Source of the DNA: Eledone cirrhosa
Lineage: Eukaryota
Direction: 5' to 3'
DNA: 64,000 bases
Assembly: GCA_964016885.1 (NCBI GenBank)
Contig: OZ024740.1
Coordinates: 141,918,001 to 141,982,000, forward strand
Shown in pieces: positions 1-60,209 of this stretch. Position 1 is the first letter of the stretch, and each line of letters starts with the position of its first letter. Made by a program: the position numbers and the translations under genes. Under the pieces are notes generated by a model. That model did not search any database. It saw nothing but the letters and a program-made list of their open reading frames with translations, and had not been told where the DNA came from.

Positions 1-2466
1 ACGAAAGCCGTTCAATGGGCCCGAGTGGCGGAGGCGCGTCGTGGCAACAAAGCCACGATCCGGTCTTTGGTGGACCACGACGGGCGCATGCTACTCGATC
101 CCGGGCAAATGTGTGACGCTTTTCAGCGACACTTCACTCAGCTGTGCGGGGGCAGCGGTGGGCCAGGTCGAGGGATGGACTTTAGTGTCTACCTCGACGG
201 ACTGCCGCGGCTCTCGGCCACTGAGGCGGAGTGTTGCGAAAAGCCGATAACAGCCGCTGAAGTAAGGGAGGCAATGACTGGCTGCAGAAGGGGTAAATCG
301 CCTGGTTTGGATGGTCTGCCCTATGAACTTTACGTACAGATGCCAGACTTGTTCGGAGGCCTCTTGGCGGACGTCTACTGCAACTGGCAACAGAAGGTGA
401 GAATTCCCAGTTCTGTGAGCCGAGGAGCGGTGGCACTGCTGAGAAAGGATCCGAACAAGGGGGATAACATAGATAATTTCAGGCCCATAACTCTGCTAAA
501 CACAGAGTTCAAGATTTTGGCCAAGGTGCTAGCAAAGAGGTTGGCCCTTGTCGTTGGTGGTCTGGTGGGAGAGGCGCAGACATGCGCCATTCCCGACAGA
601 TCCATCCACGACAACCTCCACCTCATGCGATACATCGTAGAGAGGGTAGCTAGGGAACGTGGCACGGGTGGGTCCTTGATTAATTTAGATCAGTCGAAAG
701 CTTTCGATAGGGTCGACCATCGTTACCTAGCGGCAGTCCTGAGGGCGGCTGGCTTTGGGCCCGTCTTCAGAGGCTAGATCGCTGCCATGCACAGCGACAT
801 CTGCTCTGTGGTGAGAGTGAACGGTCACCTGTCGGAACCGTTCAACATCATGCGCTCGGTCCGCCAAGGATGTCCCCTCTCGTCCCTCTTGTACGTATTG
901 ACTCTCGAGCCGTTACTGCACAAACAGGAGACGTTGAGGGGCATCCCGTGCGAACTAGGATGCAGAAGATCCGTGTCAGCATATGCGGACGATGTCACCG
1001 TAGTGGTGTCGAACGCCAAACACATCGAGGCGATCGGCACTACACTAAGAGAATACGAAGCGGTGACAGGAGCAATGATCAACCAGGAAAAGTCAGTGGG
1101 CCTGCAGCTCGGCACCTGGAGAGGCAGATCCATGCCGTCCAACAGCGTCGTCGGACGCTGGACGGACGTACCGGTTAAATTGCTAGGGGTCTGGTTCGGT
1201 CCGGACCTCCAGACGGACAAAAACTGGGACGAGGTGACGAGCAGGGTGGCTTCTCTCACCCAGGAATGGGAGGCTTTTTGTGGAAGGGACGCGCTCCGAT
1301 GGTCAGGCGGTCCATCTGTTGTCAACACCCGCTACGTGGAGGGCTGGGCATGCCGTGGCTGATGATGCGCAGGCACGCGCTCAGGCTACGACATCTCCAC
1401 CTCTTCCTCGACGGTGATCAGGTGTGATCGCCGTTTGCTAGACACGTATTTCCCCAGCTCGTTTCCTTGACGGAGCTGCAGTCCTGGGTCAAGCGAAGAC
1501 CGAGAGGGAGCGCCTGGAGACTGGAATGTCTTCAGGCGCTCACAGCCCTCGACCAATCGGGCAATGTGATCGGTGGAAACTCCACCTCGGCGTTCTATAG
1601 AGGATTAGTGGAGGGGAAGAGCGACGACGTACTTGGGGAAACTCTAGGCGTCGACGAAAATCAACTAGCCAATCTCTTCGGAAGAACTTTCGGGCCAGGG
1701 CCTATGGACAACTTCCAGAAATCTCTGGCCTGGCAGTGCTACCGAGGAGCCTTGCCAGTTCGGGATAAACTCTACAGGCATGGAGGTGCCGTCAGCCGGG
1801 CATGTCCGAGATGCCCGCAGGGCGACGAAACCGTCCTGCACGCACTCGTCCAGTGTCCGAAAATTGCTGACTTGTAGGTTTATGTCGAACACCTGCTGTC
1901 GCGTTTAGGACGGATCCGGCTATCATCTGAGTCCATCGTGAGGATTGCCCCGCCCTCCTCCTTTAGACGGGAAGGGCAGGCAGTTTTTATCTGTCTGGTG
2001 GCCATGGCGAAAGAGATAGTATGGTGGACACGTTTGAAAGGGCTGAAGACGAGCACTTACCTCTTCGGTGATGCTCTGATTGACTTTTTCAAATTTCATT
2101 TGAAAAGGAAAATCAGAGTAGAGAGGGAAGTGCTCTCTTCCCAGCATTTTGTTGAAAGATGGGTGAGAGATGCAAGAATGGCCCGAGTGAATGGGCCTAC
2201 TCTGAGTATATATCTGTAAATTAAAGGTGGAAAACTGGGAGAGGGCACTTGCCTTGGTGGTCAGGGTCACTGTGGCCTTTTACTGGGCTTTCTCCACAAA
2301 TGTCCCTCCGAAGTCTCCCCCCTATTGGGGAATTTTTCATTGTTATATTTTGTTACATCCTCTGTTTTTGTTTTTTACACGCAGAAATGCCCATTTGCAC
2401 CGTCCTGTATTGTCCTGCACTGTTCTTAATGTCTACTTTATGTAAACCCTTGTGGTTAATAAAGAA

Positions 2467-19850: not shown

Positions 19851-20514
19851 TCTCCTTCAACGGTCTTAAAAAGGAAGGGCACTTTGGACAGTGTGGTGAG
19901 AAATCACTGGATCTTAATCAGGAGTTCACAAAGGCAATACAAGGAGTCAGTGAGCTAAGTTCAAAATTTCAATTTCTTATAATACACATAATATTGGGTA
20001 TCCATTCTTCTCTAAGCATAAACATTTCTTTCTTCTGAATAACAATCTGAGAGGGGAGGCATTTTAGGACAGAGGGAAATTCATTTATATAAAAGGGGTT
20101 CTTTGAAGAGAATAGGTTGGGAAGCAATTTGACTCGAAAGTAGAGTTTTGAAACGCGAATGTATAGGAATCTCAGGAAAAATGGGAAAACGGCGTATGGA
20201 AGCTGTTAGAACAGAAAAATACCGTCGAAACGGTGTTGGGTAAAATATTACCTCGAAGGACAGGTGACCTATTCACTTTCCATTCCATTTTTTTCCTCCT
20301 TCTTATCTTTTCTTCTCTTCCTTCCTTCGAGCCAACTCATATCTAGCCGCTGATTTGTGTCCTTCGATGTAATATTTGATCCAACCCCATTTCGACGGTA
20401 TTTTGCTGTTCTAACAGCTCCCATTTTTCCTTATATATTACCCACTCTACTACCCTAAGTATTGAGTACTTTGGTGCGTTATGGTCCATTTGGTTCCTTA
20501 CCACATTTCCTTCG

Positions 20515-20567
<53 letters not shown>

Positions 20568-20799
20568 ACAAAGGAGTTGTGGTAAGGAACCAGATGGGCC
20601 ATAACGCACCAGAGTACTCAATACTTGGGGTAGTAGAGTGGGTAATAGGAAAAAGTATGACCCAGACGGCAGAACTCAAGCCGTTTCGACGTCTAAACGG
20701 CTTGAGCTCTGCCGTCGGGGTCATACTTTTTCCTATATATATATTTATATATATGAAAAGATTCAGGAACCCAAGGGCTGAGATCCGGCGTTTCGACAG

Positions 20800-23597: not shown

Positions 23598-23637
23598 GTT
23601 GGTGAAGAAGAGTTAGGGAGAGAAAAGGCATGAACAC

Positions 23638-25493
23638 TTACCTTTTAGTTTCCAGGAGGTCGGGTTGTTCGATCTCCATGTCCAGATTGGGGGTGTTTGG
23701 GGAGGGAGGGAATCCTTTTAGCAGGACTAGCAGGACACAGTCAAGGTTTTTTTGGCAAGGGGACCCCACATCATGTGGGAAGTTCCCTTTTAATGTTTCG
23801 TGTTGTAGGGTTGTTACCCTGATTAGTTTAAGGTTTGGGGGTAGGTCGTTGGTGGGTAAGGTTTTCCCTTCCGTTTGGATTGTGGGGTCCTTTCGGACAG
23901 TTTCTACCAGTTCTGTGTTTCTTGTTTTTATGTATGTGTAGTGTGTTTTGTTTTTTATGTGTACTGTTTCTGTTTGTAGTTTTCTTTTTGTGGTTGAGGT
24001 TTGTGATTGTGGTGGCGTGGCTGTTTGTTTTGTTGATGAAATGTCTGGTTGTGTTGATGGTGATTGTGTTGTTGGTGTGTTTGTCGTTTGTGGCGGTGTG
24101 TTTATGGTGGGGTTGGGTGTGTGCGTGTTTTCTGTAGATTTTTTGCTTTTGTGGTTTTTTTTCTCTCTTTTTTTTTGTTTTTTGGATTTATCGGGTTCCA
24201 CTTCATCCTCACTTGGAGATGTAGAGGTTCCCGTGTCTGAGACTTCTGAATCAGGCGTAGATGGGAGGGGTATGTTGTGTGGTGGGGTGTTTGTGCAGGC
24301 GTTTGTGGAAGTATTTGACAGAGAGCGAGGAGGCAAGGGAGGGTTTTTCAGTGGGATTTTGTGTGTTGTTGTCTCTGGTCTGTGGTGGTGTGGGAGTGGA
24401 TGTTGCAGGTTTTTGTGTTGTGTTTGGTTTGGGGTGTTGATGTTGGGGTTTTGGTGTTGGTAGTAGCACCTTGTTTGTCCTTGGTTTGTTTAAGAGAGTA
24501 CTGAGGTCTTTTCCCCTCCACTAAAATGGAGATAACATCTTCGTCCAGGATGATATAGTCTGGGATTTTTTCTACTCTCTCTGGCTTCATTTGTACCAGA
24601 ACCTCCATGCAGGTTTCAAACCAATTATTCTGGTCTGTCCTGTCTACAGATAGGAGGGTGTCCTCACCCTTCTTCAGGATGCAGCGTAGGATCCACCATA
24701 TTTTGACCTCTGCTGGGATTCTGGTTATTTTTATTTTGTAGGTTCTTCTTCCCATGTATGTGAGGAAGAAGATGTGTTGACCTGTTTTTATTGGCTGCAC
24801 TGAGTGTTTTTGAGCCAGAGTTTCGCTCTTAAAGAGCACCGACACGCTTCCATACTGTTTGGCTCTTTGAAGGTATGTCACGTCTGGCATGATGTCTTTT
24901 AATGCAGCTGCAATAGTGCTTGTTGGAAGTGTTAAGGGTTGTTTTGTAGTAATGTCAACTGTTCTGTAGATCAGATTCTCTTTTGTGTTATTTCTCTTAT
25001 TTGTGGGGGTATGTGTATGTGTGTGGTGTCTCCCTCAAACGTCACGTAGTTGGAAGCTTCTTCTAAATATTGAGAATTTTGTGAAATCCTGTTGCTTAGC
25101 AACGGTTGCTGCAAATGAAATCTTGTTATTGTTATTGTTGTTGTTGGTGGTGATGATGGTCTCATTCGTTGTGTTGTCGCTGATTCCTTTTGTTGTATTG
25201 TTGTTGTTGTTCTCATTTATTGTGTTGTTGTTGATGGTGGTGGTGGTGTTAGTGTTTGCTACACATTCTTCCTTCTGTGTGTGGGTACATGTGACGTTTG
25301 TGACGTCAAGCGTGTTCAGTTGCTTACAAGCAGCTGAAGAAGCAACTGAAGCTTGTTCCTCTTCTAAATATTGAGGCGATAATGTTGGCATTCCTTTGTT
25401 CTTGTATGCTACTATCTGCTGGTCAAGTAGACATGGCTTTCCCTTCCCATCTTCTTGTATTGACACGGAAGAAAGAGCCTTCGCTTTGCCCAT
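23638..25493 (-). pseudogene. Element C ORF1 (gag-like), frameshifted, zinc knuckle missing
   Basis: Shares YGS.S, YMGRRT, VQMKPER and VEG.RP with ORF1 of A and B; ends DMEIEQPDLLETKR-stop. Confidence 0.85.
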
Positions 25494-25709
25494 TTAAAAA
25501 AAAATTGAAGTGTTTTGCAAAAAGTTTTCGAAAATATGTTGGATGTTTTTGCCGTGAGGGGCACGATATTTTGGGAGACTGACCAGATCAAAATTTGACC
25601 TGTCAGTCCTTCTATAAATTGGTGTAAAAATAAAAGTTCACAATGACGAATTTCTAAAGAAATTTAAACAAAACTTACCGAGCAAATTTAACACATGTGT
25701 CCATCCCAG

Positions 25710-25711
<2 letters not shown>

Positions 25712-25746
<35 letters not shown>
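25712..25746. repeat. (GATA)n at the B/C junction
   Basis: Seen directly. Confidence 0.97.
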
Positions 25747-25960
25747 TTCTTTATTTACCATAAAGGCATAAAAAGAAGGGACAAATACAAAGGGGGAGTT
25801 TACATATAATCGAGTAAAAAGGGTGTAACATGAAAATAATCGAAAATAACCTCAAAAGGGAGGGGACGTGATGGGGGTTGCACACCCCCCCGAAAAAGTG
25901 TGCAATCCTTTGCCCGGGGAGCACATGGAGAAGGTGCTCCCCTCTCCTTTACTTCATTAC

Positions 25961-28900
25961 CTACAGGATGGTATACAGAGAAGGCCCATTTACACGAGCC
26001 ATTCTCGCCACTATCACCCACCTTTCATAAAACTGCCTGTGGCCAAGCACCTCTCTCTCCATTCTTATCCTTCTTCCGAAGTGATATCGGTAGAAGTAGA
26101 CCAGACTATGGCCAGAGAGGAAGTTGCCTGACCTCAGACCTTTCAATCGTGTCCACCAAACAACCTCTTTCAACATGGCTATTACGCACAGAAAAACCGC
26201 CTTTGCTTCCTTTGTGAAGAGGGGAGGCGGTTTGATTGTCATCACGGACTCGGCGGTCAATTTAATCGGCGCCACCCGCGACAGCAGTCGTTCGGCGTAG
26301 CCCCACAGATCAGCCACGCCCGGACATTGCACCAATGCGTGCGCAACGGTTTCTTCGTGACGCACGCATCTAGGGCAAATCTTTTTTGAGGGATCCCTGC
26401 CCGGGCGCCCGTGTCTGTAGAGCCTCTCTCGAACGGGTAGAGCCCCCCGGTAGCACTGCCAGGCCAGTGACTTCTGGAAGTTGTCCATTGGTCCTGGGCC
26501 GAAAGTCCTACCGAACAGGCTGGCCAGTTCGTCTTCTTCCATGTCCAGCGACGCTCCAAGGGTGTCATCGCCCCTGCTAGCCACCAGCCCTCTATAGAAT
26601 GATGAGGTGGATTCTCCACCGATGGCCTGGCCCGCTTGCCAGAGAGCCCTGAGCGCCTGAGCACACTCAGTGTGCCAGTCTCCCAGTTTTCCGGATCTTT
26701 GCTTGACCCAGGACTGTAGCTCGGTGAGCGAGACGAGTCTGGGAAAGGCTCGTTTCACGAACGGAGCCCACACCGGTTGACCAGTGAGGAATACCTGTAG
26801 GTGCCGTAGCCTTAATGCGTGCCTACGCATCATCAACCACGGCATCCCCAGCCCTCCTTTCGAAGGTTGTTGGCAGCAGATGGATCTTCTCACCATAGGA
26901 GGACGCTTCTGCCAAAGAAATTGGAAGAGCATGCGTTCCATGGTGGTGAGTGTTTCCTTAGGGCAAGGCACGACAGTCAGGCGGTAGTAAGTGACGGACG
27001 CTATGTAAATGTTCGCCACCTCCGCCCGGCCTTTTAGGGACAGCTTACACTTGGCCCATTTCTGGGTTAGTGCAAACACCTTGTTCGTAACCTCGTTCCA
27101 GTTCTTTTCCACCTGGAGGTCCGGTCCAAACCAGACCCCAAGCAACTTTACCGGGCCCTCCGTCCAGTGTCCGACGACACCGTCAGGAGGCATCGGTCTG
27201 CCTCTCCACGTTCCGAGTTGCAGCCCGATGGATTTTTCCCGGTTCAGTTTCGCTCCTGACAACCTTTCGTACTCCTCCAGTAAGGTACCGATCGCCTCGA
27301 TCTCCGAGTCGGTTGATACCATTACTGTTACGTCATCGGCGTAGGCCGACACCGCTTTGCTCAATCCTGGTTCCAGGGGGATACCCTGCAACAACTCCAA
27401 CTTCCTCAGTAAAGGCTCGAGAGTCAATACGTACAGAAGGGAGGAGAGAGGGCACCCCTGTCGAATGGATCGTGTGATTTCGAACGGCTTCGAAAGGTAG
27501 CCGTTCACCTTGATCCTAGAACAGATGTGGTTGCCATGTAGGGCAGTGATCCAGCCTCTGAAAACAGGACCGAACCCAGCCGCCGCTAGCACCGCATCCA
27601 GGTAACCATGGTCGACCCTATCGAAGGCCTTAGACTGATCCAAGTTGATCAGGGCCCCACCGAAGCCGGGTTTGTTGCCAACCCTCTCTATGATGTATCG
27701 CATGAGGTGGAGGTTATCGTGAATGGACCTGGATGGGATAGCACATGTCTGCGCATCTCCCACCAGGCCACCCACGACAAGCGCCAACCTCTTTGCTAAC
27801 ACCTTGGCCAAAATCTTTAACTCTGTGTTTAGCAGGGTTATGGGCCGAAAATGATTTATACTATCCCCCTTGTTCTCGTCCTTCCTCACCAGCGTGACTA
27901 CGCCCTTGGCTACAGAACAAGGAATTCTCCCGTTCTGCTGCCAATTGCAGTAGACCGCTTCGAGGAGTTCGGAGAAGAAGACCGGCATTGCTAAATAAAG
28001 TTCGTAAGGTATACCATCGAGACCTGGAGATTTGCGTCTGCTGCATTGGCTCAGCGCATCTCCGATCTCATCAGCCGAGATTGGTCCCTCGCAGGACTCT
28101 ACCTCTTCGTTCGAGAGACGCGGCAGGCCGTCGAGGTATGGACCGAAATCCACGCCCCCGCCCGGACCCTCGCCTCCCCCGAACAATCGGGCAAAGTGCC
28201 TTTGAAAGGCCTCGCACATCTGCTTAGGCTCCCGGATCACCCGTCCATCTTCGTCTTGCAACGACCGGATGGTGGATCGATTTCCACTCTTAGCTTCTGT
28301 CACGCGGGCCCATCCAACGGCTTTGGCCCCCTCATTACCTAGAGCACGTATTTTACTTCGAATGACGCAGCCTTCGTGCTTTGCATCGAAAAACTGGTTC
28401 AAGGCCGTCCTCGATGCCAGCACTCTGGCCACATCTTCGCTCTTGATTGCCTCTTCTAATTTACCTGTTAATTCTTTCTCGTTTCTATTCCTATCGGCAG
28501 CTAACATCTTGCTATAACTTATTGATTCTGTTCTAATCTCTCTTTTGAGAGATGCCCACCATCGGTTGTTGACGATTGCACCCGTCAACCTCTCCTTAAC
28601 TAATCTGCTAATCCGGTTTCTGTAAGTCTCTTTTGCCGGTAAAGACAAATTAAGTTTCCAGTAACCGGGACCCTGTCTATGTGTTTTCTCGAGATTGACC
28701 ACGCAGGTCACTAATTTGTGATCCGTGTAGCCAACCGTGCGCATTTCTGGACAGCTTAATATGTCCCTATCCTTACTTCTAACTAAGAATCTATCTAAGT
28801 ACGATCTAGATTGACCACTGTGGTTTCTCCAAGTCCAGGTAGGCACAGTTGGAAAATCTAGTCGATATCTATCGACCAAGTTAAAACGGTCGAGTAACCC

Positions 28901-29399: not shown

Positions 29400-29432
29400 G
29401 TGGGCGGCAGAGCCAAAGGAGAGTGTAGAGAC

Positions 29433-31333
29433 CTACCTTTCCGCTTCCCGGGGTTCGGGTTGCACGACTTCCATGGGTCGGGGGTGTTGGGTGAAGGGGT
29501 GTCTTGTGGTGGTGTGGGGTCGTCAGTGTGTGGTGGGGTTGGGGTGTTTGGAGTTGTGTTGGGGAGGGGAAGGGGAGGGGGAAAGCTTTTTAGTAGGACG
29601 CGGTTTATGGGTTTGACAGAGGGTGGTCCTACGTCCTCCTTAAAATCCTTTTTTAGTTTTTGGTAGAGGTTCATTGGGATCTTTATTAGTTTTAAATGTG
29701 GGTAGTTTTCTGAAGAAACAAAGTTTACACCTTCGGTTTGTACCGAAGGATTATTGTATATGAGCTCATTTAATTTATTATTGTTTCTGTTGATGTAAGT
29801 ATAGTGTAATGTCTTTTTTTCCGATGGTGTGAGTGTTTCGAAGAGGGGAGGGGCAGGTTTGGTTTTGTTTGTTGCTGGAGGGGTGTTTTATGTTTTGTTG
29901 GATTGTGTTGAGATTTGGGTGGGGGTTGTTTGTCCTCGTGTGTTTTGCACATGTTTTCTTTTTTTCCTTTTAATCTGTCTGAAGGACTCCGTTTCTTCCT
30001 CCGAATTCGTTGGGTTATCTTCAGTGTTGGAGGGAAGAGGTATGTTTGCTGGTAATGTTTCCGTGTTGGTTTTCTTTGTGGGGGAGATGGATGTCACTAT
30101 GTTAGACTGTGTTGTGTGTTGTGTCTGCGGTGGTTGTGTTGTTTTATTGAGTGAGAGGTTGGGTGGGCCTGTATTTTGTTTTGGGGTAATGTGTTGTGAC
30201 TGTTTGTGTTGTGGTGGTGTTGTGGTTTTACTGAGGGACGGGTTGGGTGGGACTGAGTTTTGTTGTTTGTTTATCTGTTGTGGTGGTGGTGGTGGAGCTG
30301 GTGTTGGTAGCAGGGTTTTCTTTTTGTTGAGTTGGGGACAAGCGGCCTTCAGGTGCCCTCTGCCTGCACAGATGTGGCAGGACGGCCTTCTCCCCTCCAC
30401 GCTAATGTTTATATACCCGTGGTCCTCTAATAGGATTCTGTCGGGTATTTGGGCGATGCGTTCAGGCTTCATTTGTACTACCAGCTCTATACCTGTTCCA
30501 CTGAACGCATTGCCTGTGGTTTTCCCAATGGAAATCACGTTGTCATTCACTGGATCGATGAAGCCAGCTATGAGCCAGCAGTAGTCCACATCTGGCATCA
30601 TTGGATCCAGCCATATGCGTTGAGTTCTTTTCCCCATATAAGATGGATAAAAGGTGAAATTTTTCGAACGAATCGGTGACAAAGTACATTTTTTTGCCGC
30701 CGATTCGTTCTTCATGATAATTGCTAGGCTTCCATACAGTCTGTCTTTTCTTATGAAAGTGGTTTCATTAAGTACTTCTGTGAGTACTGTTTTGATATCT
30801 GCTTGAGAAGGCTGTTCAGGTTTTTTTGTACTGTTGTTGATGGTCCGAAACTTGACCGTTCGGCTTTCAATGTTTTTCGTGAATTCTTGAGGCATTTTTA
30901 CCGATAAAATACCATTCTCTCCTTCACTTATGTATTGTTTGGCGTCCGTGATCCTTCGTACCACATCTGAAATGTTTTCCGCTATATAAGTCAAAGATTT
31001 CTTTGTTTTCTGTGCAAATGAAATCTTGTCGTCTGCTTTGTTTTCTGATATGGTGTTATTTTCAAATGTTATTTTTGTGTTTGTTGTGTCTTTGTTTGTG
31101 TTATTAGTATTGTCATGCAATTTTTCAAATTTTTTTTTTTCGTTGTTGGAATCCAAGTCCAGATTTGTGTTTTCGTCATTTTTTTTTTTCTCCGCAGATT
31201 CGTCTGTTTTTATTTTAATTTTTCCTTCCTTCTCTATGACGTTAGTTGGGAAGGAAGGGGGGACTAAAGCGTGCGAGCTTACAACTCTTACCGCTGTCCC
31301 CCCACCACTATTTTCGTTCGCTGCGTTTAACAT
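29433..31333 (-). CDS. Element B ORF1 (gag-like with CX2CX4HX4C knuckle); stop and frameshifts in 3' third
   Basis: 481-aa ORF with CHICAGRGHLKAAC. Downstream frames give FKEDVGPP..PINRVLLK and PMEVVQPEPREAER-stop, matching A. Confidence 0.82.
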
Positions 31334-31565
31334 TTCTGTTAGACGATTGAAATTTTTTACACAAAATTTTTTAAAACAGGTTTTTCACCTCTAGGAGGGG
31401 TAAAGATGAGCTGACCCACCGCCTGACAGTTCAGACGGAGGGTCAAGCTACACAATTGTATCAAAATTAAGTTTGAACTCACAAAATTTCCTCAATGAAT
31501 TTGAACAAAACTTCTGTGCGAAGTGAATGACATCCACACTGTAGAACAGACGACAGCTAGATTTT

Positions 31566-31586
31566 GATAGATAGATAGATAGATAT
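31566..31586. repeat. (GATA)5 at the A/B junction
   Basis: Seen directly. Confidence 0.95.
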
Positions 31587-31849
31587 ATTTCTTTTATTTG
31601 CCACTAGGGCATCAAAAGTGGGACAAGTACAAAGGGGGGAGTTTACACAAAAAGGCGTCCTCAATAAGGAGGAGGCAATAACAAAATATAAAAATAAAAT
31701 AAGATATAACAAAAAATAAAATTTTTAACAAAATCCTCAATAGAGAGGAGGCGCCTTGGGGGGTCGCACACACCCCCGAAAAAAGTGTGCAACCCTTCTC
31801 CTCAGGAGCACAGAGAAGGGGTGCTCCCTTGGTCTTTCATCTTCCTCAC

Positions 31850-34800
31850 CTATAGTCTGATGTAGAGTGAAGGCCCATTCACACGGGCCATTCTCGCCAC
31901 TTTCACCCATCTTTCATAGAAACGGCTGGGGTGCAGCACCTCTCTCTCCATCCTGATCCTTCTTCCGAAATGATATCGGAAGAAACGGACCAGTTGTTGG
32001 CCAGAGAGAAAGGTGCCCGACCTCAGTCCTTTCAGACGCGTCCACCATACAACCTCTTTCGCCATGGCTATTACGCACAGAAACACCGCCTCTGCTTCAT
32101 CTTTGAAGGGGGGAGGCGGCTTGATCATTACAATAGACTCGGTGGTCAACCGGATCGGTCCCACCCTTGACAGCAGTTGTTCGACATAGCCCCACAGATC
32201 GGCTACGCCCGAGCAGTGTACTAATGCGTGTGCAACGGTTTCCTCGTCGCACACGCATCTGGGACAGATCTTTTTGGCGGGGTCCCTACCCGGGCGCCCG
32301 TGTCTGTAGAGCCTTTCTCGAACGGGTAAAGCCCCTCGGTAGCACTGCCAGGCCAGGGACTTCTGGAAGTTGTCCATAGGTCCCGGGCTGAATGTCCTAC
32401 CGAAAAGGCTGGCCAGTTCGTCCTCCTCCATGTCTAGGGCTTCTCCGAGGGCGTCGTCGCACCTGCTGCGTACCAGCCCTCTATAGAATGTTGCGGTGGA
32501 GTCTCCACTGATAACCGGATCCGCCTGCCAGAGGGCGGTGAGCGCCTGGGCACACTCAGTGTGCCAGGCGCCCAGTTTTCTCGGTCTTTGCTTGACCCAG
32601 GATTGCAGCTCGGTGAGTGAGACGAGTCTGGGAAAGGTTCGTCTCACAAACGAGGCCCACACCGGTTGTCCGGTGAGGAATACGTAGAGGTGCCGTAGCC
32701 TTAATGCGTGTTTACGCATCATTAGCCACGGCATCCCCAGCCCTCCTTTCGAAGGGTGTTGACAGCAGATGGATCTCCTCACCATAGGAGCCCGCCTCTT
32801 CCAAAGGAATTGGAAGAGCGCGCGCTCCATCTTGGTGAGGGTTTCCCTTGGGCAGGGCACTACGGTCAGGCGGTAGTAGATGACGGACGCTATGTAGGTG
32901 TTCGCCACCTCCGCCCGACCTTTCAGGGATAGTTTGCAACTGGCCCACTTCTGGGTCAGTGCAAACACTCTGTTCGTAACCTCCGCCCAGTTTTTCTCCA
33001 CCTGGAGGTCCGGTCCGAACCAGACCCCGAGCAACTTCACCGGGCCCTCCGTCCAGCGTCCGACGACGCTATCGGAGGGCATCGGTCTGCCCCTCCACGT
33101 GCCGAGTTGCAAACCGATCGACTTGTCCCGGTTCAGCTTAGCCCCTGTGAACTTTTCGTACTCCTCCAGTAAGGTGCCGACCGCCTCGATTTCGGAGGCC
33201 GTCGACACCATTACTGTCACGTCATCGGCGTAGGCCGACACCGCTTTCCGCAATCCCGGTTCCAAAGGGATGCCCTGCAACAACTCCAACTTCCGCAGTA
33301 GTGGCTCGAGAGTCAATACATACAGAAGGGAGGAGAGAGGGCACCCTTGTCGGATGGACCGCGCGATTTTGAACGGCTCCGAGAGGTAGCCGTTCACCTT
33401 GACCCTAGAGCAGATGCGGCTGCTGTGCATAGCAGTGATCCAGCCCCTGAAAACGGGTCCGAAGCCTGCCGCCGCTAGCACCGCATCCAGGTAACCATGG
33501 TCGACCCTATCGAACGCCTTAGATTGATCCAAGTTGATCAGAGCCCCACCAAAGCCGGGTTCGTTCCCAACCCTCTCTATGATGTATCGCATGAGGTGGA
33601 GGTTGTCATGGATGGACCTGGACGGGATAGCGCATGTCTGCGCATCTCCCACCAGGTTGCCCACGACAAGCGCCAACCTCTTTGCTAGCACCTTGGCCAA
33701 AATCTGTAACTCTGTATTTAGCAGTGTTATGGGCCTGAAGTTACTTATTTCGTCCCCCTTGTTCTCGTCCTTCCTCACTAGCGTGACTACGCCCTTGGTC
33801 ACAGTACAGGGAATTCTCCCGTTCTGTTGCCAGTTGCAGTAGACCGCCTCGAGGAGATCGGGGAACAAGTCCGGCATAGCTAGATATAATTCGTAAGGAA
33901 GACCATCGAGACCCGGGGATTTGCGTTTGCCGCATTGGCTCAGCACGTCCTCTATCTCAGCGGCCGAAATCGGCTCCTCGCAGGACTTCGCCTCCCTGTC
34001 CGAGAGGCGCGGCAGGCCGTCGAGGTATGGACCGAAGTCCACGTTCCCAACCGGCTCCCCGCCCCTCCCGAACAGTCGGGCAAAGTGCCTTTGAAAGGCC
34101 TCACACATCTGCTTAGGCTCAAGAATCGCCCGTCCATCCAGGTCTCGCAAAGACCGGATGGTGGATTTAGTTCCACTGTTGGCCTCTGTCACGCGGGCCC
34201 AGCTAACAGCTTTGGTCCCCTCGTTCCCTAGAGCACGTATTTTACTTCGGACAACGCAGCCTTCGTGCTTCGCGTCGAAAAACTGGCTCAAAGCCGTTCT
34301 CGACGCTAGCACTCTGGCCACGTCGCCGCTTCTAATTGCCTCTTCTACTCTATCTATTAGCTCCCTTTCCTTCCTATTCCTATCCGCAGCTAGAACCTTA
34401 CTAAATTCTATCGAGACTACTCTAATCTCTCTCTTTAGAGATACCCACCACCTGCTGTTGACGATCGCTCCAGTCAACCGTTCCTTAACTAACGTACTAA
34501 TCCGATTCCTGTAGGCTCTACTTGCCGGCAAGGACAAGTTGAGCTTCCAGTAACCGGGGCCCTGTCTATGAGTTCTGTCAAGGTTGACCATGCAGGTCAC
34601 TAATTTGTGGTCTGAATAGCCAACAATGCGCATTTTTGGACAACTTAAAAAGTCCTTATCCTTAATTCTAACTAAGAACCTATCTAGGTACGACCTAGAT
34701 GATCCGCTACGATTTGCCCAAGTCCAGGTTGGCGCAGTCGGAAAATCTAGTCGATATCTATCGGCCAGGTCAAATCGACCGATTAACCCTTTGAGGCTAT

Positions 34801-35287
34801 TACACCCCTCTCTATCGGGGCAGGCCCCTACGTAGTCCCAGCGTGCATCTAGGATACCATTCCAGTCCCCCACTAATAGCAAGGAGCGGGACGTCCCTAG
34901 AAAAGTCTCCAGACGATGGAAGAAGTCCGGCCGCATTGACCCGAAAGGGCCGTAGGCGGCTACCAACCTAAACGCTCCGCCTTTACCACTGCCAAGGTCC
35001 AGAACCACTAGTCGACCCTCCGGGTCCAAATGTACCATCTGTGTTGCGAGACCCAGATGTTTTTGCAGCAGAACGACAACTCCACCCCCACCTCCAGGCT
35101 GACAGAGAGATGCGTGCATCTCAAAGTCATCAAAGGTGGGGGCCAGCTGTCGCACGTTGCTGATCCGGGCCTCGCAAATAACCATCACATCTATACGTTG
35201 TGACCTGAGGTCATTTAGAAGCATTGCTTGCTTCCAAGTTGAGCCCAGGCCACGCGCATTTAAACAGCCTACTCTTAGCATAGCCAT
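31850..35287 (-). CDS. Element A ORF2, intact, 1145 aa from the ATG at 35287: APE endonuclease, reverse transcriptase, C-terminal zinc finger
   Basis: APE motifs GCLNARGL, ICE, GDWN, SYLDR, SDHK. RT motifs SPGLDG, RPITLLN, DQSKAFDRV, RQGCPLS, YADD. Zinc finger CPRC..EETVAHALVHC. Confidence 0.97.
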   Translation of the reverse strand: MAMLRVGCLNARGLGSTWKQAMLLNDLRSQRIDVMVICEARISNVRQLAPTFDDFEMHASLCQPGGGGGVVVLLQKHLGLATQMVHLDPEGRLVVLDLGSGKGGAFRLVAAYGPFGSMRPDFFHRLETFLGTSRSLLLVGDWNGILDARWDYVGACPDREGCNSLKGLIGRFDLADRYRLDFPTAPTWTWANRSGSSRSYLDRFLVRIKDKDFLSCPKMRIVGYSDHKLVTCMVNLDRTHRQGPGYWKLNLSLPASRAYRNRISTLVKERLTGAIVNSRWWVSLKREIRVVSIEFSKVLAADRNRKERELIDRVEEAIRSGDVARVLASRTALSQFFDAKHEGCVVRSKIRALGNEGTKAVSWARVTEANSGTKSTIRSLRDLDGRAILEPKQMCEAFQRHFARLFGRGGEPVGNVDFGPYLDGLPRLSDREAKSCEEPISAAEIEDVLSQCGKRKSPGLDGLPYELYLAMPDLFPDLLEAVYCNWQQNGRIPCTVTKGVVTLVRKDENKGDEISNFRPITLLNTELQILAKVLAKRLALVVGNLVGDAQTCAIPSRSIHDNLHLMRYIIERVGNEPGFGGALINLDQSKAFDRVDHGYLDAVLAAAGFGPVFRGWITAMHSSRICSRVKVNGYLSEPFKIARSIRQGCPLSSLLYVLTLEPLLRKLELLQGIPLEPGLRKAVSAYADDVTVMVSTASEIEAVGTLLEEYEKFTGAKLNRDKSIGLQLGTWRGRPMPSDSVVGRWTEGPVKLLGVWFGPDLQVEKNWAEVTNRVFALTQKWASCKLSLKGRAEVANTYIASVIYYRLTVVPCPRETLTKMERALFQFLWKRRAPMVRRSICCQHPSKGGLGMPWLMMRKHALRLRHLYVFLTGQPVWASFVRRTFPRLVSLTELQSWVKQRPRKLGAWHTECAQALTALWQADPVISGDSTATFYRGLVRSRCDDALGEALDMEEDELASLFGRTFSPGPMDNFQKSLAWQCYRGALPVRERLYRHGRPGRDPAKKICPRCVCDEETVAHALVHCSGVADLWGYVEQLLSRVGPIRLTTESIVMIKPPPPFKDEAEAVFLCVIAMAKEVVWWTRLKGLRSGTFLSGQQLVRFFRYHFGRRIRMEREVLHPSRFYERWVKVARMARVNGPSLYIRL

Positions 35288-35311
35288 GTTGGTGGTGAAG
35301 AGAAAAGGCAC

Positions 35312-37095
35312 TTACCTCTCTGCGTCCCGGGTATCGGGCTGCACAATTTCCATTAGGGTGGGGGATGGGTTGTTGGGTGGGGTGGTGGTTTGTGGAAGTG
35401 TGGGGGCATCAGTGTGTTGTGTGGTTGGGGAGCTTGGAGTTGTGAGGGTGTTTGGGGAGGGGGTGGGATAGTTTTTTAGGAGGACTCGGTTAATGGGCCC
35501 GACGCAGGGGGGACCCACGTCCTCTTTAAAATTGTTTTTTAAAGTTTTATAGGTGTCCTGTGGGGCCTTAATCATTTTGAGGTGGGGGAAATCCCCTGCC
35601 TGGGTGAAGTTAGGCCCTTGTGTTTTTATTAGATTGTTGTTGTACACAATGTTTAACAGTTTTTTGTTTCTTGTATTTATGTATGTGTATGCATGTTTTT
35701 GTTTTTGTGTGGTGTTTTTTGTTTGCTGTTGAGAGCTCTTTTGTGTTGGTGTCAGTGTTATGTTTTGGGGAGGGGTTTTTTTCATTTGTGTGTCTGAGGT
35801 GTGTTTTCTTTTTTTTCTTTTGATTGTGTGGAAGTGCTCCTCCTCGTCTGACGACGAACTAGGGTCATCTTCCGCGTTGGAGGGGAGGGGTATATTTTCG
35901 GGTTGTGTTTGCGGTACGGGTGTTTTGGAAATTGTTTTTGTTTTTTGAGTGGAGGGGATGGGTTGGACATTGTTTTGTTTTGGTTTGAGCTGTGGTGGTT
36001 GTTTTTGTAGTGGTTGTTGTGGTGATTGTGTTGGTTGTGCAGTTGTTGGTGGTGTGGGCAGGATTGGGGTTTTCTTATTAAGTTGGGGACAGACAGCCCT
36101 CAGGTGACCTCTGGTTCCGCAGAGGTAACACGAGGGCCGTCTACCCTCAACGGTAATGTTGATGAAGGTTAGATCATCCAGTATGACGCGTTCAGGGATC
36201 TGGGCGATCCTTTCGGGCCTCATTTGAACTACAAGTTCGAGGCTCGTTCCACTGAACGCGTCACCCGATGCCTTTCCCATGGACACCAGCATGTCATCCT
36301 CCAGGTCCAGAAAACCTGTCAAAACCCACCATATGTCCATAATCGGCAGGATGGTGTGGATTTTTATTTTTTGTGTTCTTCTACCCATGTACGTAGGGTA
36401 GAAGGTGTATGCGGTGGATGTGATTGGTTTGATGGACAGTTTCACTGCTGTGTCCCTGTCCTTCATGAGAATGGATAGACTCCCGTAGAGTCTATCCTTC
36501 TGAATGAAGGTGATGTCCTTCATGACGTCTTTTAAAACCAGCTCTATCTCGCTCTGTGATGGTTGAGCTGGTTTTTTACTTTTGTTCGAGATTGTCCTAA
36601 ACATGACCGTGTTTAGGAGTCTCTGGCTTTTTAGTTCCGGGGGGGAATGGATTGTGAATGAACCATTTTCCCCGTACACTATATATTTTTTTTCGCATCC
36701 GCCAGTAGCTCCTTCGCTTTTGTTATATCTACTGGCAGATAGTCGAGGGTTTTCCTTGTCGTCTCGGCGAAGGAGAAATTTTGTTTGTTTGTGTTGTTGT
36801 TGTCGTTGGTGGTGTTGTTGTTATCATTGTTGTTGTTGTCACCGTTATTGGTCTTGTTGTTGTTATTGTTATTGTTATTGGTGTTGTTTTCTACCGTCGC
36901 ATTGTTGTTGTTGTTGCTGTTGGTTCTTTGGGTTGTTGCCATGGTAACGTCAAGTTGTCGGTTAACAGGTGGAGAGAATTCTTCCTCTGGCTGACCTATC
37001 TTCTTGACCTCTGCTACTGTGACAGTGGCAGGGGGAAGCTGTAAGTTCATCTTCCCCTTTCCTCCTTCGAATTTTGGTGAAGAAGCTTCGGCCAT
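35312..37095 (-). CDS. Element A ORF1 (Asn-rich N-terminus, conserved core, CCHC knuckle); one frameshift at an A8 run (36686-36693)
   Basis: ORFs 36679-37095 and 35312-36679 join as ADAKKYIVYGENG (B: TDAKQYISEGENG). Knuckle CYLCGTRGHLRAVC. Confidence 0.88.
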
Positions 37096-37304
37096 TTAAA
37101 AAAATATTGACTTTTCAACAAGAAAAAACTTTTTTTTTAACTATTTCGCCTAAAGGCGTAGAATATTTTGAGAGACTGACCAGATCAAAGTTTGACCTGG
37201 CAGTCCCTCTACAAAATGGTACAAAAATTAAAGTTATCAGACAAGAATTTCTATAGAAATTTAAACAGAACTTACTCAGCAAGTTATACGCGTGTGTCCA
37301 TCCC

Positions 37305-37305
<1 letters not shown>

Positions 37306-37389
<84 letters not shown>

Positions 37390-37420
37390 GATACATAGAT
37401 AGATAAATAGATACATAGAT
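37306..37420. repeat. (GATA)n flanking the 5' end of element A
   Basis: Seen directly. Confidence 0.97.
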
Positions 37421-44511: not shown

Positions 44512-44844
44512 CAGCAGCAGTAGCAGCAGTACTGGTGATGCTGCTCTTGCTATTTCTGCCGTCACTTTTCTTCTCTTTCTTCTTAATCACCTATTCCCCT
44601 CTTTTCTTCTTCTTCTTCTTCTTCTTCTTCTTCTTCTTCTTCTTCTTCTTCTTCTTCTTCTTCTTCTTCTTCTTCTTCTTCTTCTTCTTCTTCTTCTTCT
44701 CTGAGTTCAAATCCCGAGGTTAGCTTTGCCTTTCATCCTTACATGGACAATCAAATATAGCACCAGTAATGCACTAGGGTCGACTTTCTCCTTCCCCCAA
44801 AACTGTTGGCCTAGTACCTAAAGTAGAAGCCATTATTATTTTGT

Positions 44845-46170
44845 TGTTGAGTTACTCCAGACTTAGTACACATCGGTGGAGCAAGTCCATTGTTTTTTAA
44901 AATATTTTTGTTTGAATATTATAAATTGTTTTGTAGCTAAATCAATAATCTTCTTGGGAAGATGGTTAATTTCTCTATACCTGTAGCCCTTAGGAGCTAC
45001 ATTTTTGTTTCTTTTCACAAACACGCCCATTATTTAAACAAAAAAGCAGTCATGGCGCTCAAAAAAAATCCTCCCATGAATTGAACAGCGGGCTAACCAC
45101 AAAATGAAACAACCAAATTCCAACAATCAGTGATAGCCTCAGTAACATCGACAACGACGAAAATTCAGCAGCAGTACAACGGCAACGACAGCAATAGCAA
45201 CAGCAAAAATATTGACAACAACAACAACAACAACTACAACAATTACAACAACTACAACGACAACAACAGCAACAGAAGCAACATCAACAGCAGCAGCAAT
45301 GGTAACAACAACAACTCAACGCTGACAAATGATTACAGTGAATTCCCAACTTTAACACCATCGCCACCCACACATACAATGAATAAACTGAACACAACAA
45401 AAACACTAACGCAAACACTAACAACATCACTACCACCACCACCATCACCACTACCACAACCACACCCACAACCCCTACCACAACCAACTCTACAACAAAA
45501 ACTACAAAAATATAACAGAAACAAACGGCAAAAACAGCAGCAACACAGAATACAACACAAACGACAGCAGTGAACATCGAAACATTCGCAAGAATGGCTG
45601 CTAAAGCGACTCAAATGTAAAACTGGGACATTTTGGATACAGCCACTTGTTTAGCATGAGCAGCCATATTTCTCAAATTATACAAGAGTTGGGTTGGCAT
45701 TGCCGTCCTGCCCAACAACTGTCAATAAGACTCTAAATTATAATTGCATTTCGGCACAAACCAGACGGCCAGGAGCAGTACCTCCCACATGTATTTGAAA
45801 AATAACTTAAAACCATATGGCCGTACATTGCTAGGGCAAGGTAATTTGGTACTATTTCAGTGTTCTTCAAGAGCGAAGCCCTGGCAGTAAAAAACTCAGT
45901 GGTCCTTAGCCGGACCGACAAATTTATACTCAATCCGTCTTACTAGGGAGAAGGACCGTAAAGCTCAGGACTAGAAGAATCCCACCAGAGGTGGATATCT
46001 CGTGTATCCTAGCCTGCGTAGTCACTGGGGGAAAGCGACAGCATCTTCCAGATGATACGGACAAAGGAGGGAAAACTGGTCTGGGAGCAGTGTCGAGGAA
46101 CTCCTCCACATCAAACCTGAAAAGATCGAGAAGATGCCTGACCTTATTCTCTTGCTTGGTGGAATAGTAC
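44845..46170 (+). mobile_element. Tx1-clade LINE 5' remnant (element E): 5'UTR and decayed ORF1
   Basis: ATG at 45052 and an Asn-rich tract, then FGTISVFFKSEALA..GRRTVKL..RIPPEV..HIKPEKIEKMPDLIL. This is homologous to C ORF1 YGSVSVLFKSETLA..GRRTYKI..RIPAEV..MKPERVEKIPDYII. Confidence 0.82.
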
Positions 46171-56138: not shown

Positions 56139-59100
56139 CAGTCAACGCGATCAGTCGCATATTTTGGCGTGGGAGACTATTTATTAAATTTAAGATGAAT
56201 ACTATCTCCGACAGTAATGCCACAACTACAGTCATGTTGAATAAGTGGTTATTCTTCTAACTATATCTTCTGAAGACACTTTTTATTCGAATTCGTAGAG
56301 ATATCCGACTAAATACATAATTAATTTTACAAGGATTTGCTACAAACGGCATGGCTGAACACAACATCAACAAAATTAAGGAAATACCGAAGACAAATAA
56401 CAAGGAAGGTAAACAAACTTTATTCAGTTGTAGCTACAGAAGAAACTGAAATTATAAATCGCATTTCTCTTGGAGTTGCGAACTTAATGATGATTTATTT
56501 AATTGTTATAAAATGGCAAAAAACAATCTCTCCATTGGCTATATGAACAGAATGAAGCTACACTGGGACGAAATACATCCACAGCTAAATTATTTCACAG
56601 CGAAACAATTACGCCAACAACCGACGTTTGTTGAACGTAAAAATAAGATAAATATTATTAATTGTAAGTCCCTCACAACAAACATGTTATCAACAACACG
56701 TGCTACAGGTCGCCATGCTACTAGACTTCCTAGCAGCCAGGTCGAACAGCGACTTGAAACAACTATGCCTGTAAGAAACTTGACACCACCTGTACCATCT
56801 AAGTCTACCTCGAATGTTGGGGAAAACACTATCGATAATAATAATAATCGAAGAAATAATAATAATAATCGAAGAAATTTGACACCACGTGTACCATCCG
56901 AGTCTATCTCGACTATTGTGGAAAATACTATCGATAATGATAATCAAAAGTATAAACAATTGAAATTTTCCCTCAACGAAATCTTCCAGAGATAAATTAA
57001 CTCATGTATAAATATCTCTCTTGCTGAACGTATTAAAACGACAATGTTTAATAAAAACCAAATAATGAAATATTACGTGTTATTGACGAATTAGGGGATG
57101 AATATTTACGACGGATAAAAGCCCCAACATTTTCGCAAATCAACGCCTGTTTATATGCCTTAGAAACGACAGTGAAGCATTATCTTGGTGATAGCAGAGA
57201 TATTAACAAGAACAGAACACCACCAAAAATACCATCATATATAACTAAAATAGAAAAAAAGATTGCTGACCTACGAAAAAACATAGGATATGTGACAATG
57301 CTCCTTACTTGCAAACAAACGTAAAAAAACCTCACTCCTCACCAACAAAGAGTGAAAAATAAAATAGAGACGATGTTTGGTAACAGTAGAACCAGAACTC
57401 TCCAATATAAGCTGATCACCTTCAAACAAGAATTGAGAGCTGTTAGCGAAAAACGCCGATACCCGAAGAAGGTAGATGAGAGAAAAGTGATTAATAAAAC
57501 ATCAGTCTATAGAGATATGAAGGGCAAAATAATAAGTGTCACTGAGGCCCCATCCAAGAAAGACATAGATTCCTTTTGGAGCAAAATATGGGGTGAAAAG
57601 AAGAATTTCAACCAAGATGCAGTGTGGCTAAACGAAATCCAAAAGAACTATTGCCCCTACACTACAACAAAAACATACGAAATAAGTGAGGGTACCCTTG
57701 AGACTGTGATAGGAAAACCCCAAGATAAGAAAACACCAGGAAGAGACATGATTGTCGGCTACTGGTACAAAAAAACTGATATTCTATCAGAGGTATCTTA
57801 CCGACCTCTACCAACAAGTTCTTAAGGGACATACACTTATACCAGAATAGTTGACATTAGCACAAACATTACTGGTCCCCAGAATAAAGACACCCATCTG
57901 GCAAAAACCTACCGACCCATTGCATGCCAGAACCTGATGTATAAAATCTATACCGTCTTCCTGAACCTAAGATCACTGTGAAAATAATAACATCATCACA
58001 GATGAACAAGCAGCTGGAAAGAAAGGGGTTTGGGGATGTGCTGAACAACTCCTAATCAACAAAACTTCGATGTCGGAGGTGCGACAATTTAGGAGGAATA
58101 TGGCTACAGTCTGGCCGGACTACAGGAAAGCTTTCGATTCTGTTCCCCACTCTTGGATTTTAGAGGCCCTCCAACTTGCTAAAGTCCCAGACATTATTGT
58201 CAGAACCATAGAGAGGCTGTCTTCTTCTTGGGCTACTATCCTAAGGTTAAAGACAGAGAGGGAGGACTCTATTTTCACTGATAAAATTAAATATTGCAGG
58301 GTTATATTTCAGGGGAACAGTCTCTCTGTGATATTATTCATCTTCTCATTAAACCCCCTCTCCTTTCTGCTCAAGAAATGTGAGAGATACATCATTGGCT
58401 CACAGGAGGACAGAAATACGAACATAACCCATAATTTCTTTGTGGACGATTTGAAACTCTATGCCAAGAACATGGATGGGATGAAGAAAAATCTTGACCT
58501 GGTTACAACGTTCTCAAAGGATATAGGAATGGAGTTTGGCCAAGATAAATGGTCATACATGACGGTAAAGCGGGGAAAAACAACAACCCAATCTAGCAAC
58601 ATTGTCATCAATGGCCTAACTGTTTCACCGATATCTGATGAGGACTGCTACAGATACCTGGGGATAGATGAGAACATATCCTATGATGGTGTCTGTAATA
58701 AAGAACGCTACACCCGATTAAGAAAGATCTGGTCATCGGAACTCTCTGCGCAAAACAAAACAGTGGCTCACAATGTGTTTGCTGTGCCTGTCCTAACACC
58801 AACGTTTGGAATACTCAATTGGACGATAGACGAAATCCGAGCAGTTGATGTTGGAACTCGAAAAATACTAAACAACACCGGAAACTTCCACATCAACAGT
58901 GATATAGACTGCCTTTACTTGAAATGTAAGCAGGAAGGCAGAGGCCTAACATCAGTCCAGACAACATTTGAATGTCGCATCTCTCCGACAACATCTACGA
59001 ACCTCGAAGCGTAGGAGCCCGTTTCTCGAGCAAGTCTATCTGCATGAAACAGATAAGCTCATGAGAGTTGGGAAAGAACTCCTCGAGAGATATTCCCTGT

Positions 59101-60209
59101 GTGACAATCAAAACCGTACACCCAGGGATGTCGCTCATCAGTATCGTAGTGAATCCATGGATGAAAAACTGCATGCTTATCAGCAAAAAATCATGCATGG
59201 ATATGTTGCCAGGAAGCTCCAGAGTGAGAGTAATATAGATAAGGAAAGTAGTCTATCTTGGACCAACAACCGCTATATTGGCTCCCACTTTGAAGGATAC
59301 GCTTTTGCAATCCAGGAACAGGAGATTAGCACGAAATATCTGATTCACAAAAGAGATAGGGATGCAGGCAAAACACCTAGATGTGATAACAAGTGCATAC
59401 TCTGCAGAACTAACATCGAGGATATCACCCATGTCATCAGCAGCTGTCCAAAGATGTCATTGCGGTACTATCTACCTATGAGGCATGATGTAGTGACCAA
59501 AACACTGTACATTGCAGTTCATAAAAAAGATAGCCCCGATAATAAACACATTAAAAGCTACAGCAATGTGGAAGACAACCATGTACATAATATGAAAGAG
59601 TACTGGTGGAATATTCCAGTAAAAACCCCAATAAAATGCAGGCATAACAGACCAGATATTATGATATGGGACAGGGAGAAGAAAGCATGCACAGTAGTGG
59701 AAATTAGCTGCCCAGCAGATGCCAATATAATATCAAAGATTAGTGAAAAGGAGAATATTTATGCAGAACTGATGAGAAATCTGCACATACTCCACCCTGA
59801 TTACACCTTCAGATGTATGCCTGTGATTATTGGGGCACTGGGATATGTTAGTAACTGCCTCAATACAAATCTTGAGAAGCTAGGCTTCACAGGAACAGAA
59901 AGAACACAACTAGTTAGGAAATTACAAGTACAATCCATTAATGAAACAGTAAAAATATGTAAAACATTCCAAAAATTTTGCATCTAATAACTGCATATAC
60001 ACATGTACAGATGCAAAGCATATACACATGCACACATACAACTCAAAACATCCCCATCCACACTTACAATAACATCCATATCTACACATGCAGACATACA
60101 TACATATCTACCTAGTTGATGTATAAATTCCAATCAGAGAGTCTTGTGTCTATGTTAGAAACTGACTCTCGCTCTATTGGTAAAACTTTGTGAAATTATA
60201 AAACCAGAA
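56139..60209 (+). mobile_element. R4/Dong-like non-LTR retrotransposon with restriction-like endonuclease; near full length, frameshifted
   Basis: RT motifs YRPIAC, DYRKAFDSVPH, IFQGNSLS, FVDDLKL, YLG. Then CILC..EDITHVISSC, RHD, NRPD..VEISCP..EKENIY. (CATA)n on both flanks. Confidence 0.9.

Follow-up and report, generated by a model that had tools for sequence, protein, structure and literature searches.

The window analysed here, 64,000 nucleotides of Eledone cirrhosa contig OZ024740.1 (positions below are those of the window), contains three LINEs, A, B and C, arranged head to tail on the minus strand with (ATCT)n between the copies. They are non-LTR retrotransposons of the L1 group (APE-type), with an APE endonuclease and a reverse transcriptase (RT) encoded in ORF2. 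The ORF2 of A (31,850–35,287, minus strand) is open over 1145 aa and encodes the APE endonuclease (PF03372, E = 5e-8), the RT (PF00078, E = 5e-26) and a C-terminal zinc-binding motif, whose match to PF13966 (E = 4e-5) is weak at 24.7 bits against a curated cut-off of 27.5 and is also found in the ORF2 of relatives. In a comparison of this ORF2 with the PDB, human L1 ORF2p was the best match (E = 3e-48), with R2 at E = 3e-19, and the best named homologue, at 67%, comes from Argonauta hians, which points to an octopod host. In these elements ORF1 is A-rich, with several internal A(A/T)TAAA sites. That of A (35,312–37,095, minus strand) has an Asn-rich N-terminus and a CCHC knuckle; the frame opened by the ATG at 37,095 ends near 36,681, and the conserved body is read in a different frame. 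No Pfam match was obtained for ORF1; the knuckle (CX2CX4HX4C) is present in A and B, and Atlas look-alikes carry zf-CCHC at 0.90–0.93.

A (ATCT)n microsatellite of 29 units lies directly upstream of A (37,305–37,420) and is its likely insertion target. A is linked to B by an AATAAA (31,598–31,593) and a short ATCT tract (together 31,566–31,598, minus strand), and B to C by an AATAAA and (ATCT)9 (25,711–25,755, minus strand), so that in this one window the repeat adjoins all three 5′ ends (A, B and C) and both intact 3′ ends (A and B). Placement in the Tx1 clade would be in keeping with the domain layout and the targeting of microsatellites, the tree itself holding no named Tx1 reference. Kibi and Koshi of the Tx1 clade are likewise animal APE-type LINEs found in microsatellites, (TC)n or (TTC)n in their case and (ATCT)n here, and tandem insertion has been described for Tx1-driven SINEs; the accessible part of that paper makes no mention of splice motifs in Kibi or Koshi (Kojima, 2015, PMC4494074).

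Several other repeats lie in the window. A relative, D (1–2300, plus strand), is approximately 66–71% identical to A in ORF2 and has AATAAA and (ATT)n at its end in place of (ATCT)n, and E is a decayed distant relative with weak traces of ORF1 only. Directly upstream of E, a SINE-like sequence (44,701–44,840, plus strand) ends in ATT repeats and, we presume, resembles an octopus SINE. The broken 3′ end of C is occupied by a long, MITE-like inverted repeat round a (TA)n tract (20,436–20,647), where Rfam microRNA matches were below threshold. A broken non-LTR element of another type (57,373–59,987, plus strand) has an RT (PF00078) followed by a CCHC motif and by an RPDI-like motif of the kind found in restriction-like nucleases.

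Downstream of a 29-nt 5′ leader, or putative exon 1 (37,276–37,304, minus strand), A carries a 67-nt intron-shaped segment (37,209–37,275, minus strand; GC 24%) that reads GA/GTAAGT..TGTAG/A, where slashes mark putative splice junctions. Its parts are a donor (37,275–37,270), the motif TGTTnAAA (37,267–37,260), a putative branch A (37,228) and an acceptor TAG (37,211–37,209). The corresponding segment of C (25,612–25,678, minus strand; GC 22%) reads CG/GTAAGT..TATAG, and in both elements the segment starts 29–30 nt from the 5′ end; the strings, coordinates, length and AT-richness agree with those given in an earlier, sequence-only reading of this DNA. Since the two segments differ at only 13 of 67 positions (81% identical), their equal length reflects shared ancestry and does not constitute two independent observations. 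Both are 49% T and contain, 20 nt before their end, a branch-like T-n-A-T (a pattern match only), in which 37,229 varies and 37,230 and 37,228 have no listed variant. The homologous segment of B (31,448–31,514, minus strand) retains the acceptor at 31,448 and TGTTnAAA, and the alignment reads CA-GAAGT at the donor, without GT, as had been observed. The alternative intron proposed for B (31,482–31,391) is indeed present as a string, but at 92 nt and GC 47%, and spanning a conserved hairpin that follows the acceptor, it is not equivalent to the 67-nt segment and was dropped as its counterpart. E contains a 56-nt GC-AG look-alike (44,881–44,936, plus strand) 31 nt from its apparent 5′ end; its coordinates and GC donor were confirmed. 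TGTTnAAA, the second conserved motif within the segment of A, B and C, fits a promoter element.

Two further features of the segment were seen. A palindrome lies within it (37,247–37,260, minus strand); a loose end in five X1 contigs (see below) shows a paired T-A to C-G change there, and one pair is broken in an X13 contig. Removal of the segment from C would give an upstream ATG a frame of 47 codons that closes with a TAA directly before the ORF1 ATG (25,494–25,708, minus strand), whereas A without its segment has no such frame.

Conservation of the segment was assessed in contigs assembled from sequencing runs, the kind of run being unrecorded, that were compared with 36,920–37,320 (322 contigs in X1, three in X5, two in X13 and none in X6, which was not used further). 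When A, C and the listed contig variants are taken together, 16 of the 67 positions vary, none of them in the GT or AG, which is not significant (P = 0.33); the 11 signal positions are jointly invariant at P = 0.037, for a set picked post hoc and with acceptor positions not listable for X13. Conservation also continues for approximately 18 nt beyond the donor. The expectation that GT and AG be more conserved than neighbouring UTR positions is therefore not borne out within the A/C lineage, whereas in the relatives described below the donor motif is conserved far beyond chance. When the same UTR was shuffled 5000 times with dinucleotides preserved, the combination of donor, branch-like pattern and YAG arose in 1.3% of shuffles for A and 0.14% for C.

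A precise absence of the segment, which would appear as a joint of 37,276 to 37,208, was found in none of the 322 + 3 + 2 contigs, so the search for copies lacking exactly these 67 nt that the sequence-only reading had proposed yielded none. Spliced copies are thereby bounded and not excluded, because contigs drop rare variants. The X1 contig identical to A through the whole segment reaches a word depth of 2198, and the joints listed for the same set include an unrelated one with a depth of 6.7; if a depth of 6.7 approximates one copy, we infer zero spliced copies among some hundreds. X5 contains one unspliced 368-nt contig and a divergent contig that matches the acceptor and 35 nt downstream of it, the match ending inside the segment. 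Assemblers clip short ends as tips, and as the first exon, at 29 nt, falls below the 31-letter assembly word, a spliced 5′ end could be clipped in X5.

Relatives were found by a GTDB scan, which returned 38 loci in one bacterial bin, with ORF2 40–43% identical to that of A. This bin, titled uncultured Arenicella (L055–L090, L093 and L094; contigs CAXXMW01000002–18), contains tandem arrays of intact animal-type LINEs and is likely host DNA binned as bacterial. No relatives were found in viral contigs. As a single bin is the source of the relatives, the comparisons that follow include few independent ones. In a quick tree, the donor-bearing families and the octopod sequences form one clade (SH-aLRT 100). 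The loci provided 47 distinct element junctions, comprising 30 leaders of family F1, 14 of F2 and one of F3, with two 5′-truncated elements left out of leader counts. A leader donor, hereafter D1, occurs once per leader in 44 of the 45 intact leaders (30/30 in F1 and 14/14 in F2), the exception being the lone F3 leader. In F1, AAAA/GTAAGT is invariant in all 30 copies, and no other invariant run is as long in this UTR, where 78 of 332 columns are invariant; in F2, GTAAGACTT is invariant in 14/14, the donor has the form G/GTAAGA, and D1 is among the longest invariant runs, the UTRs otherwise being 23–28% invariant. Over 16 UTR representatives (12 of them from one bin), GTAAG ranked among the three most over-represented 5-mers, being present in 13 against 2.6 expected. 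In A, C and the majority of F1 elements, D1 lies at approximately +30 to +36, and in F2 at approximately +80 to +110, counted in the trimmed UTR; in F1 arrays it follows the AATAAA of the upstream copy by 56–70 nt.

The two large families differ in their acceptors. No YAG is conserved in F1, half of whose copies (15 of 30) have none at all between the donor and the ATG; TGTTnAAA follows the F1 donor in all five subfamilies tested, and all 30 F1 leaders retain both the donor and the region downstream of it. In F2, a T-rich YAG/G lies 175–197 nt past the donor in 14/14 (13 CAG and one TAG), the interior of the segment varies in length, and a hairpin follows the acceptor directly, as in A. None of the exon–exon junction strings of the 14 F2 leaders, whose acceptor is defined, was found in any of the loci of the relatives. 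The claim that the segment is retained thus holds: it was present in all copies seen, with none lacking it among the contigs or these loci. The leaders of F1 and F2 cannot be aligned, though the RT domains are nearly identical, a pattern that looks like 5′UTR/ORF1 replacement within one lineage. For example, L063, L067 and L075 are near-identical in RT to L056, L060 and L086 beside unalignable F1 and F2 5′UTRs, respectively, the labels referring to the leader beside each ORF2. The F1 segments (leaders of L063–L085) also contain repeated ATTGTT, presumably a Sox-like motif, at 3–8 per 100 nt against approximately 1 expected.

Donor motifs recur at both ORF ends. D2 overlaps the ORF1 stop in all three window copies: A (AG/GTAAGT, 35,310–35,317, G at 35,315), B (AG/GTAGGT, 29,431–29,438, G at 29,436) and C (AG/GTAAGT, 23,636–23,643, G at 23,641), all on the minus strand. 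Among relatives, AG/GTAAGT precedes 35 of the 37 ORF2 starts caught by a peptide pattern, and the two misses belong to F3, which lacks D1 as well. The third motif, D3, stands shortly past the ORF2 stop in 47/47 relatives (26 GTAAGT and 21 GTGAGT). In A (TAG/GTGAGG, 31,844–31,852, minus strand) it overlaps the stop and is weaker than in relatives, B has a D3-like motif at its ORF2 stop (CCT/GTAGGT, 25,959–25,967, G at 25,964, minus strand) that is also weak, and none is evident in D. D2 varies between GTAAGT and GTAGGT. Although both motifs share bases with stop codons in the octopod copies, D2 of F1 and F2 sits past the stop codon and is followed by variable bases, so its conservation is not merely that of the stop. 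In five elements, donor density was 32 per kb at the ORF junction, 9.4 per kb after ORF2 and 0.5–1.2 per kb in the ORF bodies, and the antisense density was 0. Distant LINEs (21–30% identical), used as a control, had D2 at 0/21 junctions and D3 at 0/14 3′ ends, and a leader donor in 5/19 in sense against four in antisense, that is, at background.

Some distant LINEs have leader motifs of their own: two of them (L007, 28–33; L008, 19–24) have a strong donor a short way before the first ATG of ORF1, and two others (L034, 1–440; L035, 1–300) have leader monomers of approximately 210 nt, each with GTATGT..TGTAG over 62 nt.

These distributions bear on the possibility that the segment is a chance likeness in AT-rich sequence inherited by related copies. 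Such patterns occur at 12 places in the window (128 kb over both strands), three of them in these UTRs, and the A and C segments are 81% identical, which would suit this explanation. However, the donor recurs at three fixed places in families that are approximately 41% identical in ORF2 and have unalignable UTRs, whereas distant LINEs are at background. Chance is hardly credible; for the donor it is largely refuted, and for the 67-nt acceptor taken by itself the case against it is less strong.

It is also very improbable that D2 serves to splice ORF1 to ORF2 or to the 3′UTR, producing a fusion protein or an ORF1-only mRNA. With an AAG 42 nt (A) or 51 nt (B) past D2 as the acceptor, ORF1 would be fused in frame to ORF2, as judged by eye, and a YAG with a pyrimidine tract lies 34–40 nt past D3 in the 3′UTRs of F1 and F2. 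The join in C, however, is out of frame, and it is impossible in F1 and F2, whose ORF1 has already ended before D2; in addition, AAG makes a weak acceptor, an intron of 42 nt would be very short, and the 3′UTR of B has no YAG past D3 except one overlapping the stop. An ORF1–ORF2 fusion by splicing was rejected, as it is not conserved.

A more serious alternative, though one we still consider improbable, is the model of the sequence-only reading, namely that the segment is a routinely spliced 5′UTR intron with an internal promoter, in which spliced RNA is translated and unspliced RNA alone gives viable copies. The full anatomy of A and C, namely donor, T-n-A-T at −20, 49% T and TAG, is what such an intron would show, as is a branch-like site whose n varies while its T and A are constant. 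TGTTnAAA conserved within the segment, the T-rich YAG/G of F2 beyond a length-variable interior, and the divergent X5 contig whose match covers the acceptor and ends inside the segment also favour it. The description of the segment as intron-like is in fact strengthened by this anatomy and by the donor conservation in relatives. It is doubtful, however, that the spliced RNA is what is translated, since cis-acting LINE proteins should then leave spliced copies, as in human L1, and none was seen among the X1 joints or the F2 strings; moreover, B lacks the GT, and F1, with its donor and downstream region always present, has no conserved YAG. D2 and D3 would also be left unexplained.

The leader RNA is predicted to be structured. 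In A, a 7-bp hairpin pairs 37,285–37,279 with the donor (37,275–37,269), the donor GTAAGTT being complementary to AACTTGC of the leader, with a 3-nt loop that differs among A, C and an X13 contig; B has a 5-bp version in which ACTTC can pair with GAAGT and GT is absent. A long hairpin begins at the last base of the acceptor (37,170–37,209, minus strand) and is retained in B and C via compensatory changes, and 10 of the 27 predicted pairs of the leader are changed on both sides among only three sequences. The predicted probability that the donor is unpaired is 0.19 in A, 0.14 in C and 0.00 in four of five F2 leaders, and 0.37–0.49 in four of five F1 leaders, for which masking is not predicted. 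The donor pairs upstream in A and C and downstream in F2, and has no fixed partner in F1. A 5′ self-cleaving ribozyme (HDV-like or hammerhead) was rejected: no Rfam match was obtained over the leaders, the hammerhead core is absent in 9/9 leaders and the HDV loop motif in 7/9.

GTAAGT might accordingly be a DNA element or an RNA stem, such as a transcription-factor site or a hairpin arm, that only resembles a donor. It forms an arm of the hairpin conserved in A and C, a pairing kept in B without GT, and the approximately 18 nt past the donor are conserved as well. Downstream promoter elements lie at about +30 to +36, the position of D1 in A, C and most F1 elements. In human L1, there is the precedent of a RUNX3 site over the donor. 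This explanation nevertheless appears unlikely to us, as the hexamer is found again at the ends of both ORFs, always in sense orientation, and alternates among canonical donor forms, D1 lies far deeper in F2, and the pairing partner changes between families.

The interpretation that we favour, at somewhat below even confidence, is that D1–D3 are selected U1-binding sites, with D1 in a mostly retained leader intron. Its observed basis is that donor motifs stand at three sites, conserved and sense-only, with variation only among canonical donor forms, and that two of the three mostly lack a usable acceptor. Donors without partner acceptors (the F1 leader and D2) point away from splicing, whereas the acceptor conserved in A, B and C and in 14/14 F2 suggests real splicing there; its conservation in the octopod lineage and F2 is the main argument for some splicing. 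U1 snRNP would bind D1–D3 on the nascent RNA, and the bound U1 would support transcription and control the use of poly(A) sites, so that full-length transcripts are made or ended, as with retroviral major splice donors. Excision of the 67 nt would be a minor or regulated event, held in check by donor–leader base pairing; a spliced copy would lose the TGTTnAAA within the segment and be a dead end, and the unspliced RNA would serve as both mRNA and template. The absence of the D1 GT in B and E, of a leader donor and of D2 in F3, and of an evident D3 in D stands against this interpretation, as do the weak D3 of A and B and the lack of predicted masking in most F1 leaders, and a donor as fully masked as that predicted in F2 cannot bind U1 unless refolded.

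More tentatively, the elements may have borrowed an architecture from the spliceosome, in which three U1 sites bracket both ORFs, permit full-length transcripts and determine poly(A) use in tandem arrays. With a similarly guarded degree of confidence, these sites could act either independently of splicing or together with a 5′ intron gated by RNA structure, in a retrovirus-like manner and retained through 5′UTR replacement. A partial analogy is provided by the major splice donor of foamy virus, where splicing-independent action of U1 suppresses cleavage and polyadenylation and RNA structure serves as a switch (Schrom et al., 2013, PMC3694450, in the part available). Foamy virus, however, is a retrovirus that has LTRs and whose poly(A) signals are duplicated, whereas the elements described here are non-LTR, have three sites, and have a U1 function that is proposed by analogy.

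A retained, promoter-overlapping intron in a LINE 5′UTR is already known in human L1 and is not new in kind. According to the available part of the study by Larson et al. (2018, PMC5860796), human L1 has a conserved, mostly unspliced intra-5′UTR intron overlapping the promoter; its donor, close to the 5′ end, is conserved too, and masking of it by structure has been proposed. Most human 5′UTRs are unspliced, although spliced L1 RNA does insert, as SpIREs, at approximately 1.8% of full-length copies; the human donor is explained by the RUNX3 site, and the introns are at least 500 nt. In the present elements, by contrast, the segment is 67 nt (175–197 in F2), no spliced copy was found, and the donor persists over unalignable UTRs and recurs at both ORF ends. 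Penelope-like elements, named in the sequence-only reading as the known exception to intron removal, are accordingly joined by human L1 as a further precedent. They likewise have copies retaining intron sequence and can carry spliced introns along, but they possess a GIY-YIG nuclease, a telomerase-like RT and pLTRs (PMC3846280, in part); no Penelope hallmark (GIY-YIG or no nuclease, telomerase-like RT, pLTRs) was found in the present element, which has an APE and an L1-type RT. Escape from HUSH by intron mimicry was considered a weak candidate, as short introns protected little and splice sites were unneeded in the available part of PMC8770142.

A search of open-licence PubMed Central and bioRxiv returned no report of donor motifs conserved at both ORF ends of a LINE clade. 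The available part of a SAFB study (PMC10901741) contains nothing on conserved LINE donors, and the words "intron" and "splic" are absent from the main text of an Octopus vulgaris repeat annotation (PMC13282606). Splice sites in LINEs are usually viewed as a cost or by-product; here, strong donors persist at three fixed places over deep divergence and unalignable leaders, while acceptors come and go. If U1 uses D1–D3, long, A-rich, intronless retroelement RNAs would gain a simple escape from early cleavage. Host introns would also receive three strong donors with each new insertion, a point of relevance to cephalopod transcriptomes, and L1-Tx1 families are reported to have been recently active in cephalopods (PMC13282606, Table 1).
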